Source of the DNA: an uncultured Actinomycetota bacterium | GTDB lineage: Bacteria; Actinomycetota; Aquicultoria; JACQXZ01; CAYGBL01 | NCBI GenBank assembly: GCA_964348135.1 | Contig: CAYGBL010000001.1 | Location: forward strand, 22 to 64,021 | Length of the DNA stretch: 64,000 bases | Direction of reading: 5' to 3' | Shown: positions 2,841 to 27,880 of the stretch, piece after piece | Numbering within the stretch: the stretch's first letter is position 1 | Layout: every line of letters begins with the position of its first letter | Notes under the pieces: model-generated | The model's database searches: none | What the model saw: only the letters and a program-made list of their open reading frames with translations | What the model was told of the DNA's origin: nothing | Translations under genes and position numbers: made by a program

Positions 2841-2863
2841 AAAAGCCCCTCCAGGGGCTTTTT
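2841..2863. terminator. Bidirectional rho-independent terminator hairpin
   Basis: aaaaaGCCCCTccAGGGGCttttt: GC-rich 5-7 bp stem flanked by A-run and T-run, sits immediately 3' of minus-strand RlpA-like gene. Confidence 0.5.
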
Positions 2864-2881
2864 GCAGTAGAAACGGACTCC

Positions 2882-3412
2882 TTACCAGTCGAGTGCGACG
2901 GGACCAACACCCCGTCTGGTAGAGCCGAAAAGTGCAATGAAGGCATCTTTATCCAAATCAATTACTCTACCGGGCACAAAAGGTCCATGATCATTTATTG
3001 TTACTACAATAGAATTCCCCGTCTCCAGATTAGTAACCCTGACTTTTGATCCCTTTGGGGCCACCAAAGAAGCGGCATGCATACCACCTTTCCACCTGTA
3101 GTAACTGGCTGCGCCTTCAATGTGCCCCCTTGGGAGATCCTCACCTGGTAACCAGAAATATCCACGTCCTCTACGGCTAACCCTTCTATTTCGCTGCTTG
3201 TATTTTGCCTTGCTTGATCTTCTTCTTAGATACATACGGGCTTGAAGTTTGCGTTTTATAATTAGGACCTTTTCATCGTAGAGCCTTCTTAAGGAACCTT
3301 GCTTTGCATCCTGAGCAGAAAGAGATATGAAACTGTGGGTAAAGATTAACACCCAAATTGTCAGAAAAATTACTGTAAACCTTCTTCTCAATATCAACCT
3401 CCTTTGGTACAT
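2882..3412 (-). CDS. RlpA-like (double-psi beta-barrel) lipoprotein
   Basis: N-terminal hydrophobic segment; C-terminal ...AASYYRWKGG...VRVTNLETGNSIVVTINDHGPFVPGRVIDLDKDAF matches RlpA/DPBB consensus. Confidence 0.6.
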   Translation of the reverse strand: MYQRRLILRRRFTVIFLTIWVLIFTHSFISLSAQDAKQGSLRRLYDEKVLIIKRKLQARMYLRRRSSKAKYKQRNRRVSRRGRGYFWLPGEDLPRGHIEGAASYYRWKGGMHAASLVAPKGSKVRVTNLETGNSIVVTINDHGPFVPGRVIDLDKDAFIALFGSTRRGVGPVALDW

Positions 3413-3732
3413 TGCAGTTTAGATTGAAAACTGCCATATTTACTTAAGCAGAGCTATTCACATAGCCAGGTGAGGCGTCAGCTCAAGGAAACATTGGGTA
3501 AACTGGCGAATTTTGCTGAGACTAAAACAAAGACAAGAAAGCTGTATCTGGTGAGCGGTTTAATGGATTGAATTGTGGGATAGCATGAGGTCTGTTAATT
3601 AACTTCACTAGTGCTACGATCACAGTGGAATACCAAGTTTAGACAAAACAGCAATATAGTCTAAGACGATATTATTTGTTTCGATATTATACCTTATAAT
3701 TCTAATATTTCCAAACAAAGGAGAGGTAATAT

Positions 3733-5133: not shown

Positions 5134-6140
5134 AAGAAGCAATGTGGTATGAAAAGTTAGAGGATAAGAAAGTTAAATGCCGTCTATGTGCTCATTGGTG
5201 TGTAATCCGGGAAGGAAGAAGGGGTTTTTGTGCTGTCCGTGAGAATCGTGATGGAATTCTCTTCAGCCTGGTGTACGGAAAGGTAATAGCCGAACACATA
5301 GATCCTATTGAGAAGAAACCACTCTTTCATTTCTATCCTGGGAGTAGATCGTTTTCCATTGCTACCGTTGGATGCAATTTTCGCTGTGATCATTGCCAGA
5401 ACTATGATATTTCGCAAATGCCGGTGGATCAAAAGACTATTTTAGGAAGAGATTTATCACCAGAACAAATTGTACATGAAGCAAGAGAGGCAAAATGTGA
5501 GAGTATATCATATACCTATACCGAACCGACTATCTTTGCGGAATATGCTTATGATACAGCTAAACTGGCGGCGGAAAAGGGAATTAAGAATGTCTTTGTA
5601 ACCAACGGGTATATCACAGAAGAAGCACTCCGTACTATAGCTCCATATCTTGATGCTGCAAACGTTGATCTAAAATCCTTTAAAGATGAGTTTTACAGAA
5701 AGGTATGCCACGCTAGACTAGAACCTGTTCTTGAAGCATTAAAGCTATACAAGAATTTGGGCATCTGGATAGAGGTAACTACTCTGGTAATACCCAATTA
5801 CAATGACTCCGATTCAGAGCTTCGCCAAATTGCAGAATTTATAGCAGGCCTGGGAGAAGAAACACCTTGGCATATAAGCCAATTCTATCCCACCTATCAT
5901 CTTCTTGATCGACCAAGAACACCATTGGAGACTCTGGAGAGAGCTCGCCAGATTGGTTTTGAAGCGGGGCTGCGGTATGTATATGTAGGAAATGTGCCTG
6001 GAGAAGGGGAAGAAACACTGTGCTATAAATGCGGGAGACCGGTAATTCAACGTTATGGTTATAATATACTCGCCAATAATTTGAAGAACTCCAGATGTAT
6101 TAACTGTGGAACTGAGATAGACGGAAGGGGACTGAGATAA
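5130..6140 (+). CDS. AmmeMemoRadiSam-system-type radical SAM enzyme (PFL-activase related)
   Basis: N-terminal Cys-rich segment (KCRLCAHWC...GFC) followed by CNFRCDHCQN radical SAM motif; overall match to AmmeMemoRadiSam radical SAM family architecture; overlaps upstream gene by 4 bp. Confidence 0.75.
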   Translation: MKEAMWYEKLEDKKVKCRLCAHWCVIREGRRGFCAVRENRDGILFSLVYGKVIAEHIDPIEKKPLFHFYPGSRSFSIATVGCNFRCDHCQNYDISQMPVDQKTILGRDLSPEQIVHEAREAKCESISYTYTEPTIFAEYAYDTAKLAAEKGIKNVFVTNGYITEEALRTIAPYLDAANVDLKSFKDEFYRKVCHARLEPVLEALKLYKNLGIWIEVTTLVIPNYNDSDSELRQIAEFIAGLGEETPWHISQFYPTYHLLDRPRTPLETLERARQIGFEAGLRYVYVGNVPGEGEETLCYKCGRPVIQRYGYNILANNLKNSRCINCGTEIDGRGLR

Positions 6141-24305: not shown

Positions 24306-24328
24306 AGCTGCTTCTGGCAGCTTTTTTA
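24306..24328 (+). terminator. Rho-independent terminator after ade
   Basis: AGCTGCttctgGCAGCT followed by TTTTT; a second hairpin+T-run (CGAACacggGTTCG TTTATTTTTT) at ~24455-24480. Confidence 0.5.
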
Positions 24329-24614
24329 ATTTTGATCCCTTTGCCTCTTTTACATAACTTACGAACCTTGATCCTTGTCTTATAACGTTTTTTTATGCTC
24401 TTTCGGCCAAATATTCACGTGGCCTTTTAAATTGAAATACCACCAAGATTTATACGAACACGGGTTCGTTTATTTTTTAAAGGGAAAACTATTAATATAG
24501 CTTGTATAAAGGCTTAGAATCGATTTCAGAGCGTCTGAGCGAAAGCTGATAAGAGGCTTAGCCATGCGGTTTTATGCGGTTTATACGTTATTTTAAGATA
24601 TATGAGGTTGGGGA

Positions 24615-24878
24615 TTACAGGAAGCGTATAGTATCGGGCTTGACCGGGTAGCTCGGGATGATTTCTTTAGTATATGCAAAATAATGTACCGAGCAGTTCA
24701 AGCAGCGTCTTTTTTCATTCCGCTTGCAACATGGAATATTCGGAGTCTCCCAGCAATTCTTTTTATTCTCATAAGCAGGACAATTATGATTTTTTGTATA
24801 TTCGCATTTCTGAACTTCATGGCACTTATGGTCCAATAACGACCTCCAGAATGATAAGTCTGGATAGATTTGCGACAC
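24615..24878 (-). CDS. Small Cys-rich protein (87 aa, 8 Cys), paralog of the Cys module of the adjacent histidine kinase
   Basis: GTG start; C-x5-C-x7-CP-x7-CWETP-x3-CC-x7-C-x2-C pattern aligns with HK residues 75-122 (C-x5-C-x4-CP-x8-CWTFP-x3-C-x14-C-x2-C); last gene of same-strand HK-RR-RR array. Confidence 0.45.
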   Translation of the reverse strand: MSQIYPDLSFWRSLLDHKCHEVQKCEYTKNHNCPAYENKKNCWETPNIPCCKRNEKRRCLNCSVHYFAYTKEIIPSYPVKPDTIRFL

Positions 24879-25006
24879 CCGTATTAACGTTTAACTATTT
24901 GGTGAGCCTGGCAAAGAAACAGCTAATATAAAGATATAAAGCCTGATAATATATGTTATGTAAACTAATAACCTTTAATCCGTATTTTCTTTCTTCCCCT
25001 TAAAAC

Positions 25007-25477
25007 TTACTCCCCACGTTCTTTCTTCTTCATAATGTCAAGCATTGTACGAAGTTTGGCAGTTTTGAATCTTTTTTCTGCATCCTCAGGATACCAGGTG
25101 CTAGCTTTCTTTTCCAAAACTTCTTTCACAGTATCCAAAAGCTTCTGCGGGCTAAAAGGTTTAGTAACATATTCGTCAATTCCCGTGTCAACCGCTTTAA
25201 GCTGATCTTCATATTGGCCTCGTGCCGTTAACATAATTACAGGAATATTCTTATGTTCTGGATGTTCCTTAAGCTGTTTATTAACCTCCCAGCCGTCCAT
25301 TTTTGGCATCATAACGTCCAAAATGATTAGATCCGGCTTTTCGGCTTCCACTTTTTTGAGAGCGTCTTCTCCGTTGAAAGCTTCAGACACGTCAAAATCT
25401 TTGTCCAGCTTCACGCGTGCCAGTTTTACTATATCCGGTTGGTCATCGACTACTAATATTTTGGTTCTTTTCAACAC
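25007..25477 (-). CDS. Response regulator, receiver domain only (CheY-like) with short C-terminal extension
   Basis: ILVVDDQPDIVKL...DLIILDVMMPKMDG...IMLTA receiver motifs. Confidence 0.85.
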   Translation of the reverse strand: MLKRTKILVVDDQPDIVKLARVKLDKDFDVSEAFNGEDALKKVEAEKPDLIILDVMMPKMDGWEVNKQLKEHPEHKNIPVIMLTARGQYEDQLKAVDTGIDEYVTKPFSPQKLLDTVKEVLEKKASTWYPEDAEKRFKTAKLRTMLDIMKKKERGE

Positions 25478-25863
25478 TTGTCACCTCTTTCTGAATGAAT
25501 CCCTTTAAGTACTTTTTCCACCTCTGCGAGCAGTTCCTTGGGAGTAAAAGGTTTATTGAGATAGGCATCAGCTCCCATTTCCATTCCCTTACTGATTTCG
25601 TATTGTTGAGTTTTGGCTGAAAGGATAACTATCGGAATATTTTTGGTCTCTGGAATCTCCTTCAGTTTCATACAAGCGTCATATCCACTCATAAGTGGCA
25701 TCATAACATCAAGAATGATCATATCGGGTTTATCCCGTTTGGCCAGTTCAATCGCTGCCAATCCATTTTCTGCCTCTAATATTTCAAAACCGTGGTTTTC
25801 CAGTGTAAATTTTACCAATTTCAAAATGTGTGGTTCGTCGTCAGCCACTAAAATCTTAGGCAT
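25471..25863 (-). CDS. Response regulator, receiver domain only
   Basis: ILVADDEPHILKL...DMIILDVMMPLMSG...IVILSAK; overlaps neighbours by 7-8 bp (translational coupling). Confidence 0.85.
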   Translation of the reverse strand: MPKILVADDEPHILKLVKFTLENHGFEILEAENGLAAIELAKRDKPDMIILDVMMPLMSGYDACMKLKEIPETKNIPIVILSAKTQQYEISKGMEMGADAYLNKPFTPKELLAEVEKVLKGIHSERGDKC

Positions 25864-27880
25864 CGATATTATGTGTCCCTTTCAGTAACTCCTCAATTTT
25901 CCTCATTAGGATATCAGGTGAGAAGGTCTTAACCTCCTCTTTGCCAGGTTGAATTGCTCTTGAAAATGCCTCTTCGATTCTTTCTCCGGTTAACGCTATT
26001 ATTGGAATATTCTTTGTTTTTTTGCTTCTTTTCAAATTTTTTATAAGTTTGAGAATTTCAGTATGAGAAACATCCAGGTCGAGAATGATTAATTCTGGCT
26101 TTTTATTCTGGGCTAGTTTTAGAGTCTCCTCTATTTCTCTTGCCTTGAGAGCATCCAAGCCTTTTTCTTTAAGAACTCCGCTTATCATGTGAGCCAGATC
26201 ACGGTCATCAATAGCAATAAGTATATTTCCTTTTGGACCTTTGCGATCAAGCAGACTGTTTATAACACTAATCAGTTTTTTGGGTTCAATAGGCTTGGAA
26301 AGAAAACTGGACGCTCCTACGCGAAGACATTTATATTCATCAGCTACTATGGACAGCATAACTACGGGAATCCCCTTTGTCGTAGGATCCTCCTTTAATG
26401 CGCGAAGGACTTCAAAACCATTCATCTCTTCCATCATGATGTCCAGAGTAATCAGATCAGGGTTTTCCTTCTGTGCAAGTTTAAGAGCATCCGGTCCATT
26501 AAGAGCACAAATGGTGTTAAAACCTTCTTTTGAAAGGAGTATTTGTATAAGCTTAACTATGTCCGGTTCGTCATCCACTATCAGAATTTTGTCGCCCTCA
26601 TGTAGAGTTATTTCCTCAGCACCGGGTAATTTCTTAACTTCCTTTTTCGGTTCAACTGGAAGAGTGAAGGTAAAGGTGCTTCCCTTTCCTACCTTACTTA
26701 CCGCCCAAACTTCACCACCATGAAGGTCTACTATAGATTTAACAATAGCCAGTCCCAGGCCAGTACCACCGACCTCTGTAGTAAGAGAGCTGTCAACTCT
26801 ATAGAATTTAACAAAAAGACGATCTAGGTGTTCTGTGGGGATTCCAACGCCCGTATCGCTTATGCTGGTGGCTACTTTGCTATCAGAAGCCCTTGCAGTA
26901 ATGCGGATACAGCCTTTGGCGGGAGTATATTTAATGGCATTGCTCAGTAGATTTACAATAATCTGGACGATACGGGATCTATCTGCAAATACTTTAGGTA
27001 ACTCGCTGGGGATACTTAGAGATATATGCATCTCCTTGCTTTTTGCCAGGTTTTCGATGCTGGTTACCGCTTGTTCTACCACCTCTCTTAAAATCAGGGA
27101 TTCCTTCTTAAGTTTAACTCTACCTGATTCTATACGTGATACATCCAGAAGGTCATTAATAAGGCTTACCAGGCGGTCATTGTTTTGCTTTACGATTTCG
27201 AGAAATTCTCGTTGAACCTCGTTGATTTCACCAGCTTCTCCGTCAATGATTAGGTCTACGTATCCTTTGATTGAGGTTAAAGGTGTGCGAAGTTCGTGGG
27301 AAACGGTAGAGATGAACTCAGTTTTCATCCGGTCTACTTCTTTTTCCAGGGAAATGTCCTGCAACGTCTTCATATAGCCTAAAAAATTACCTTCATCATC
27401 AAGCACTGGGTCGGTTATAATCTTCAAAGTTTTGCCAGAAGACTTAATAAATGCTTCCTCGGTTGAAGGCATTCCCGTCTCCTCAACTATCTCTAAATTT
27501 AGCTGAAAGACTTTACAGTCTTTACATAATTCATATCTCTCTTTTAGGTTCCTTTGAATTCTCCCAAAACATCTAGTCTGGGGAAAGGTCCAGCACCTTG
27601 CTTCTTTTACTTGAAATACAGGACATTCTGATTCCTCACAGTCTAGCACGTCCCAACAATCGACCAGAGGCTCTCTATTTATTTTGGGATTCTTGTTGAG
27701 AAGGCTCGACATAGGGATAGTTTGATTAAGCACCTTCTGTTTTTCAATACCGAGAAGTTTTTCTGCCGCCGGATTAATGTGGGTTATGCGATCCTCTTTG
27801 TCGAAAACAATAAGACCATCTGTGGTGCTGGAGATAATTGCTTCAAGTCTAGCTTTTTCTCGATCTTTTTCTCTTTTCAA
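25856..27880 (-). CDS. Hybrid sensor histidine kinase: PAS (with Cys-rich insert) – HisKA – HATPase – two receiver domains
   Basis: H-box STVSHELRTPLTSIKGY, G2 box GGTGLGLAIVKSIV, two C-terminal REC domains; no TM segment; Cys-rich insert at residues ~75-122. Confidence 0.85.
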   Translation of the reverse strand: MKREKDREKARLEAIISSTTDGLIVFDKEDRITHINPAAEKLLGIEKQKVLNQTIPMSSLLNKNPKINREPLVDCWDVLDCEESECPVFQVKEARCWTFPQTRCFGRIQRNLKERYELCKDCKVFQLNLEIVEETGMPSTEEAFIKSSGKTLKIITDPVLDDEGNFLGYMKTLQDISLEKEVDRMKTEFISTVSHELRTPLTSIKGYVDLIIDGEAGEINEVQREFLEIVKQNNDRLVSLINDLLDVSRIESGRVKLKKESLILREVVEQAVTSIENLAKSKEMHISLSIPSELPKVFADRSRIVQIIVNLLSNAIKYTPAKGCIRITARASDSKVATSISDTGVGIPTEHLDRLFVKFYRVDSSLTTEVGGTGLGLAIVKSIVDLHGGEVWAVSKVGKGSTFTFTLPVEPKKEVKKLPGAEEITLHEGDKILIVDDEPDIVKLIQILLSKEGFNTICALNGPDALKLAQKENPDLITLDIMMEEMNGFEVLRALKEDPTTKGIPVVMLSIVADEYKCLRVGASSFLSKPIEPKKLISVINSLLDRKGPKGNILIAIDDRDLAHMISGVLKEKGLDALKAREIEETLKLAQNKKPELIILDLDVSHTEILKLIKNLKRSKKTKNIPIIALTGERIEEAFSRAIQPGKEEVKTFSPDILMRKIEELLKGTHNIDA

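Follow-up and report, generated by a model that had tools for sequence, protein, structure and literature searches.

Why should a large hybrid histidine kinase with a Cys-rich segment inserted in its PAS fold be followed, beyond two receiver-only response regulators, by a small open reading frame (ORF) with a similar Cys pattern? We addressed this question for a locus on the minus strand of a 64,000-nt stretch of DNA from an uncultured Actinomycetota bacterium (hereafter the window). A first-pass annotation had taken the four genes for one two-component operon, with the small protein, encoded last, as a free-standing paralogue of the kinase segment. The four minus-strand ORFs were found as it had described them, and the Cys motifs quoted for them were present as written. 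The reading that we favour, and think quite likely, is a different one: the locus holds two separate members of one Cys-rich superfamily, a kinase with a PAS insert and a distantly related stand-alone small protein, which lie side by side at the replication terminus across a probable dif site and do not constitute a conserved operon. The features concerned are the following.

25856..27880, minus strand: hybrid histidine kinase, 674 amino acids (aa); an identical protein is P0028 in the public collection
27491..27667, minus strand: two-CW module, kinase residues ~72–130
25471..25863, minus strand: receiver-only response regulator, 130 aa (Response_reg, E 3e-30), overlapping the kinase stop codon
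25007..25477, minus strand: receiver-only response regulator, 156 aa (Response_reg, E 9e-31), with a C-terminal tail of ~35 aa
24939..24966, plus strand: probable dif site, with the second response regulator on one side and the small ORF on the other
24615..24878, minus strand: small Cys-rich ORF as delimited mechanically (87 aa, GTG 24878); likely gene 24615..24836, 73 aa
24306..24322, both strands: terminator-like hairpin, bidirectional, separating the small ORF from the convergent adenine deaminase gene

The kinase insert matches the two-CW domain

The kinase begins directly at its PAS domain, with no N-terminal hydrophobic segment, and continues through HisKA, HATPase_c and REC domains to a second, more divergent REC domain. 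Pfam matches were obtained at residues 11–57 (PAS), 185–253 (HisKA), 300–410 (HATPase_c) and 432–540 plus a second stretch (Response_reg), together with a weak match to PAS_10 at residues 138–176. Residues 11–176 have the five-stranded antiparallel sheet with helices on its flanks that defines a PAS fold, and the Cys-rich module follows the helical part of this fold and precedes its last three strands. Its seven conserved cysteine residues are Cys75, Cys81, Cys86, Cys96, Cys104, Cys119 and Cys122; the first and fourth of them are each followed by a tryptophan residue, giving two CW motifs (C75-W76 and C96-W97) within the ordered set C81, C86, C104, C119 and C122, and Trp97 is invariant.

No Pfam model covers kinase residues ~72–130 or the small ORF, and the first-pass annotation had stated that the module was not a named domain. 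A name does exist: the insert matched the NCBIfam model NF045718 (two_CW_domain) with 29.3 bits (E 8.2e-7) when searched as an 87-residue fragment and with 30.7 bits (E 3.1e-7) as a 61-residue fragment, beneath the curated cut-off of 35 bits, and all 33 homologous kinase inserts matched the same model at E≤1, with a best E-value of 1.7e-10. By these profile matches the module is most probably the two-CW domain, already named but uncharacterized. The match covers model positions 2–76 of 80, with 54 residues spread over 75 model positions, which suggests that the loops of the window insert are shorter than those of the model. A literature search found no paper using the name 'two-CW domain', no solved structure was found among the sequence relatives of the module, and searches by sequence and by fold yielded no relative whose cofactor is known; no ligand was found either, so that the domain is known only as an NCBIfam model.

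The distribution of the module was analysed using a hidden Markov model (HMM) of the insert. The module was found in 109 of the 120 closest kinase homologues, always 61–65 residues ahead of the H-box, and the residue following its first cysteine is tryptophan in 77 of the 109 and otherwise variable. It occupies the same position in homologues that are only 40–50% identical. The five closest homologues (P0029–P0033), which are 66–69% identical with the window kinase over the whole protein, lack exactly this segment of ~65 residues, with both flanking PAS halves conserved. Judged from this distribution, the module is probably ancestral to the kinase family, and loss in the sister lineage represented by P0029–P0033 is the simplest reading because more distant homologues retain the insert. 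AlphaFold2 (AF2) modelled the insert as helices plus one small hairpin, with a predicted local distance difference test (pLDDT) score of 85–91 across the module. The insert is shown in this way to be a discrete, conserved and confidently modelled subdomain with seven conserved cysteine residues.

Some of the homologues carry names, and these pointed to Actinomycetota (Coriobacteriia, Anaerosomatales and, within the class Aquicultoria, Candidatus Oleimmundimicrobium). The kinase belongs to a widespread group of hybrid kinases of uncultured, probably anaerobic, Actinomycetota in which the two-CW domain is a standard PAS insert. Natural orthologues with the insert (window) and without it (P0029–P0033) offer a ready-made comparison for what the insert senses. 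Three further searches were uninformative: a word-indexed protein search with the kinase sensor fragment returned no useful match, a scan of genome contigs with the N-terminal part of the kinase recovered generic PAS kinases only, all lacking the module, and tblastn of the module against plasmids returned one irrelevant match only.

The window insert itself is somewhat atypical. At residues 100–118 (about 27527–27583, minus strand) it lacks the near-invariant SGT motif and the Phe and Lys of an FxxK motif, and its NF045718 score is the lowest among the inserts. Constraint on the insert may have been relaxed here, the closest sister lineage having lost it.

The small protein is a distant relative by sequence comparison

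The small ORF was compared with the kinase N-terminus by BLASTP, which gave an E-value of 7e-4 with 32% identity over 72 columns and 18% gaps. The Smith–Waterman score was 69, compared with a shuffle mean of 28–29 (standard deviation 5–6), and this score was not reached in 5000 shuffles of all residues or in 5000 with the Cys positions fixed. When the cores of 22 small proteins (alignment A4) were aligned with 33 kinase modules (alignment A3) using hhalign, a probability of 93.8% (E 1.8e-7) was obtained over 50 columns, in a register that aligned seven cysteine residues, the tryptophan and a proline. The HMMs of each family also detected the other family above composition-matched shuffles; the kinase-module HMM, for example, gave 14.4 bits on the window small protein and a maximum of 13.1 bits over 4400 such shuffles. 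The similarity noted in the first-pass annotation has therefore held up against shuffled Cys-rich controls and in the profile–profile comparison, and on these alignments the small protein and the kinase module are homologous, but distantly so.

The two differ in their details. The small protein has the pattern C-x5-C-x7-C-x8-CWE-x4-PCC-x7-C-x2-C, with eight cysteine residues as against the seven conserved in the kinase module. It does not have two CW motifs: the first position is C-H and varies across the small family, whereas the second CW is conserved. Relative to NF045718, its first CW is replaced by CH, one more cysteine is present (CC) and the loop ahead of the final CxxC has 7 residues instead of 14; the protein gave no match to that model at E≤10. 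From its sequence it would fit a two-CW superfamily in the broad sense, but not NF045718 proper.

We asked whether so short an ORF is a real gene and where it starts. The 87-aa form begins at GTG 24878. A TTG codon at 24836 is preceded by GGAGG at 24847..24843 with a 6-nt spacer, and the orthologues in the two closest relatives, loci L098 and L099, open at the equivalent TTG behind GAGAGG or AAGAGG, also with a 6-nt spacer. Since the TTG and its ribosome-binding site are shared with both close orthologues, the start is most likely TTG 24836 and the product 73 aa, in place of the GTG start given in the first-pass annotation. Orthologues were located at 3396..3620 (L098), 5656..5877 (L099) and 2855..3124 (a third related locus, L082); those of L098 and L099 are syntenic and each 68% identical with the window protein. 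The proportions of non-synonymous (pN) and synonymous (pS) differences across the orthologues were 0.21–0.31 and 0.76–0.96 respectively, with pN 0.21–0.22 for L098 and L099 and synonymous sites saturated. Because pS is saturated while pN is only ~0.21, the comparison indicates a real gene under strong purifying selection, and the doubt that the first-pass annotation had raised over conservation in relatives is answered by the syntenic orthologues, the excess of pS over pN and the conserved start region. Gene finders left the small gene uncalled on three public contigs, namely the Logan contig of the window locus (L001, around 5065), L098 and L099, and a word-indexed protein search with the small ORF returned nothing; protein databases probably under-represent the family, whose members are of about 70 aa and frequently missed by gene callers. 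The small protein was modelled largely as short helices, with a folded core of pLDDT 75–88.

A putative metal site in the module

We propose that the cysteine residues of the module ligate a metal cofactor, the state of which (cluster oxidation, cluster loss or ligand binding) would be relayed through the PAS sheet to the kinase helix. The signal could be O2, redox state, nitric oxide or sulfide, and the output would pass to the kinase's own receivers and to the two single-domain regulators. The suggestion of an iron–sulfur (Fe–S), Zn or redox-sensing site in the first-pass annotation is plausible in this respect. For the putative site, an Fe–S cluster appears somewhat more likely than structural Zn, because the module has only one CxxC and a C-x5-C-x4-C spacing that recalls Rrf2-type cluster sites, and because its homologues come from groups described as anaerobic. 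If the module does bind an Fe–S cluster, the known inputs of PAS kinases would be extended by a redox or gas input of a new type.

The module could instead be a purely structural zinc-binding insert without any sensing role, and the small proteins generic zinc-binding adaptors. Seven or eight conserved cysteine residues including a CxxC pair are what such a reading would expect; it is also in keeping with the confident AF2 model of the insert, obtained without a cofactor, and with the fact that the insert can be lost while the remaining kinase stays conserved. Set against this are the presence of a single CxxC knuckle and the predicted folds, since the short helices of the small protein and the helices and one hairpin of the insert are unlike the zinc-ribbon hairpins that characterize many Cys4 sites. 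The insert moreover sits where the PAS domains of other sensor kinases hold cofactors, and there is again the anaerobic character ascribed to the groups in which the homologues occur. None of these four points is decisive, and we regard a structural role as a minority reading of some weight.

Metal sites in PAS kinases have precedents. PMC13478379 describes NreB of Staphylococcus and Bacillus licheniformis as a cytoplasmic PAS kinase in which an Fe–S cluster on Cys ligands gates kinase activity, and PMC6624279 describes WalK as a PAS kinase that binds Zn. The likeness of the window kinase to NreB would be functional only: the ligand cysteine residues of NreB lie within the PAS core, whereas the window kinase has a separate inserted subdomain of ~60 residues with seven cysteine residues, and no sequence similarity was detected between NreB and the window module. 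The cysteine residues of NreB are spaced C-x2-C-x11-C-x2-C. In WalK, Zn is reportedly held by the side chains of His, Asp and Glu residues in the PAS core, with no Cys-rich insert. Weak matches to the Pfam family PF10967 (DUF2769) were seen in five of the 33 kinase inserts (best E 0.0045, all below any threshold), and none for the window module or the small family. DUF2769 is itself uncharacterized (PMC12704099, PMC13607799), and the matches may represent a remote link to another Cys-rich family, to be taken as a lead only.

The kinase cluster and the small gene flank a probable dif site

A 28-bp element on the plus strand (AAGCCTGATAA-TATATG-TTATGTAAACT; full sequence AAGCCTGATAATATATGTTATGTAAACT) occupies part of the interval that separates the second response regulator from the small ORF. 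Compared with the dif site of B. subtilis (ACTTCCTAGAATATATATTATGTAAACT; sequence from PMC3025954), it is identical at 21 of 28 positions, slightly above the best found in shuffled windows (18–20 of 28). The identity is distributed unevenly, with 11 of 11 positions in the XerD arm and five of six in the centre but only five of 11 in the XerC arm. The element contains a palindromic ATAA-N6-TTAT and is single-copy within the window. GC skew changes sign at the element, with a cumulative maximum at 24.0–25.0 kb, and the point at which gene orientation converges is ~300–700 nt away; dif sites are located at the GC-skew shift point according to Kono et al. (PMC3025954). As a stretch of ~30 nt, the element is almost invariant among the window and the closer relatives L082, L098 and L099 despite the saturated synonymous sites, and equivalent dif-like sites are found in five related loci, lying between the kinase cluster and convergent genes in the last two.

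L082: 2613–2640
L098: 3300–3327
L099: 5569–5596
L100: 12359–12386
L102: 13008–13035

The match of the XerD arm, the uniqueness of the element, the switch in GC skew and the conservation combined lead us to regard it as probably the chromosomal dif site, a putative target of XerC/D. As this dif-like site falls at the change of sign in GC skew and near the converging gene orientation, the window probably spans the replication terminus. We had also considered that the element might serve the small gene as a promoter or operator, or be a PadR site, an idea that was dropped after the dif match and the GC-skew switch had been found.

The gene order was then compared among the window and the related loci.

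Window: APRT, PadR, kinase (with module), response regulator, response regulator, element, small gene, then convergent adenine deaminase
L099: APRT, 162-aa protein, PadR, DJ-1, kinase (without module), response regulator, response regulator, element, small gene, then convergent adenine deaminase
L098: DJ-1, kinase (without module), response regulator, response regulator, element, small gene
L082: APRT, PadR, unknown gene, DJ-1, element, small gene, then convergent adenine deaminase; no kinase
L100 and L102: a tandem pair of two-CW kinases with regulators, followed by the element; small-family ORFs absent within 9 kb

The gene for the 130-aa regulator keeps its place in the order in L098, L099, L100 and L102, and the 156-aa regulator is conserved in L098 and L099. 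From these arrangements the four genes do not appear to be a conserved operon: the probable dif site separates the kinase cluster from the small gene, and the two would be neighbours because both border the terminus. Adjacency near a terminus can in this way mimic an operon.

The operon proposed in the first-pass annotation, in which the free module would serve the kinase's own module as co-sensor, decoy or cofactor chaperone, deserves to be weighed against this comparison. The genes share a strand, the gap is 170 nt with no predicted terminator, and adjacency is kept in three related genomes (window, L098 and L099). In addition, a signalling enzyme is the immediate neighbour of a small-family gene in five of nine distinct contexts (the window kinase, a GAF-HisKA_3 kinase and GAF/HD-GYP/GGDEF proteins), a count that comes from a small sample and a post hoc comparison. 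One functional unit is nevertheless hard to reconcile with a probable dif site between its parts, with L082, which retains the small gene without any kinase, and with L098 and L099, where the small gene stands beside kinases that have no module; conversely, L100 and L102 each have two two-CW kinases and no small gene nearby, and other members of the small family follow fliL-fliM-fliN, hemC or galT. We consider a single operon of this kind unlikely.

Some observations nonetheless count against our preferred reading of two separate superfamily members side by side at the terminus. No terminator-like site was found on the minus strand from the second regulator to the small ORF (25007 to 24836), and read-through co-transcription is possible; nor was a convincing promoter found in the 102 nt between the dif site and the TTG. 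The dif call rests on sequence, position and conservation, and no Xer recombinase gene was detected among the ten window ORFs tested. On the side of the module, the window insert falls below the NF045718 cut-off (30.7 compared with 35 bits) and lacks residues conserved in its homologues, which may reflect decay in this lineage, and both the clustering of the cysteine residues in the model and the binding of metal are putative.

Other features near the terminus were also noted. The tandem kinase and receiver units of the more distant relatives L100 (6553–11416) and L102 (6565–12206) occupy the same terminus-proximal locus, with PadR and a TrkA-type channel gene nearby in L102 and the channel gene in L100; the single kinase of the window may be a reduced version of this tandem arrangement. 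Gene content beside the dif-like site varies among the relatives, in which DJ-1 and the kinase cluster may each be present or absent. Rfam gave no match in the region. Two terminator-like hairpins (24454–24469, plus strand, and 24306–24322) lie within the 380-nt gap that separates the small ORF from the adenine deaminase gene, and for the second of them on the plus strand there is no obvious gene to terminate.

The small proteins form a stand-alone family

A phmmer search of 1.84 billion cluster representatives gave 27 matches to the small protein at E<1e-3, of which 26 are credible; P0002 was rejected as a repeat artefact. The credible members are mostly of 53–144 aa and share the pattern given above for the window protein. 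Two modules each are present in P0008 and P0011, P0027 has a second, less complete CW-containing segment, and P0022 (411 aa) is an excisionase-type helix–turn–helix protein, HsdR-like at its N-terminus, to whose C-terminus the module is fused. Both CW motifs are present in one of the modules of P0027. The 27 matches included no kinase carrying the module internally. The small proteins thus appear, from their sequences, to be a separate stand-alone family with one CW and an extra CC, and the term paralogue used in the first-pass annotation does not fit, since the small protein belongs to its own family and the kinase module groups with kinase modules.

A closer tie between the two genes of the window, in which the small protein would be a recent duplicate or the donor of the kinase module (excised from, or captured by, the neighbouring gene), is suggested by their physical adjacency and common Cys pattern. 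It is very improbable given the ancestral position of the module in homologues of only 40–50% identity, the 30–53% identity of the window small protein with small proteins of unrelated contexts compared with an alignment to the kinase module that reaches 32% identity only with 18% gaps, and the behaviour of NF045718, which matches 33 of 33 kinase modules but only four of 23 small-family proteins, and those weakly (best E 0.053).

A metagenome scan with a six-sequence alignment of the small family gave nine loci. Outside the syntenic Actinomycetota loci the following contexts were seen.

After fliL-fliM-fliN, then LysE or a GAF-HisKA_3 kinase: L083, L089–L091, L095 and L096
Directly after a 7TM-GAF-HD-GYP protein (7TM, seven-transmembrane), itself following a REC-GGDEF protein: L085
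Directly before a HAMP-GAF-HD-GYP protein: L086–L088
Directly before an HD-GYP-GAF-GGDEF protein: L097
After galT: L084
Between hemC and a metalloenzyme-superfamily gene: L092

Of the signalling enzymes next to small-family genes, only that of the window is a two-CW kinase. The fliL-fliM-fliN subgroup comes from genomes of 42–52% GC (L083 6001–6234, L089 5947–6192 and L095 5117–5362, also L090, L091 and L096). Three family members lie 25–153 nt from GAF-containing HD-GYP/GGDEF enzymes of cyclic di-GMP (c-di-GMP) signalling (L085 3018–5213, L086 5001–7507 and L097 5980–8667), an adjacency that hints at a broader association with cytoplasmic signalling proteins. We also considered whether the small family as a whole is associated with dif and rejected the idea, as dif-like sites occurred only in the syntenic Actinomycetota loci.

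The most economical reading of the small protein is that of an independent stand-alone sensor or adaptor. A bolder proposal, which we offer as speculation and think improbable as it stands, is that the stand-alone one-CW proteins are a new class of metal- or redox-responsive modules that dock in trans onto cytoplasmic signalling enzymes, supplying the input that two-CW kinases carry in cis. Their partners could then be the module-less PAS kinases of L098 and L099, GAF-HisKA_3 kinases, GAF/HD-GYP/GGDEF proteins and perhaps the flagellar switch. That the small ORF, being short, Cys-rich and frequently unannotated, encodes the precursor of a ribosomally made, cysteine-modified peptide of the SCIFF type is hardly credible, given the lack of an adjacent radical-SAM (S-adenosylmethionine) or other maturase gene in the nine contexts, the conservation of the full length including the folded core (pLDDT 75–88) and the two-module or fusion members P0008, P0011, P0022 and P0027.

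Finally, a tail motif following the Cys core, (I/L)-x-P-x(1-6)-P-x-T-I or 'IYPRTI', was observed in distant members of the family. It is seen at about residues 60–73 of the window protein (73-aa form) and in P0001, P0003, P0004, P0007, L089 and L095, and it could be a docking motif.

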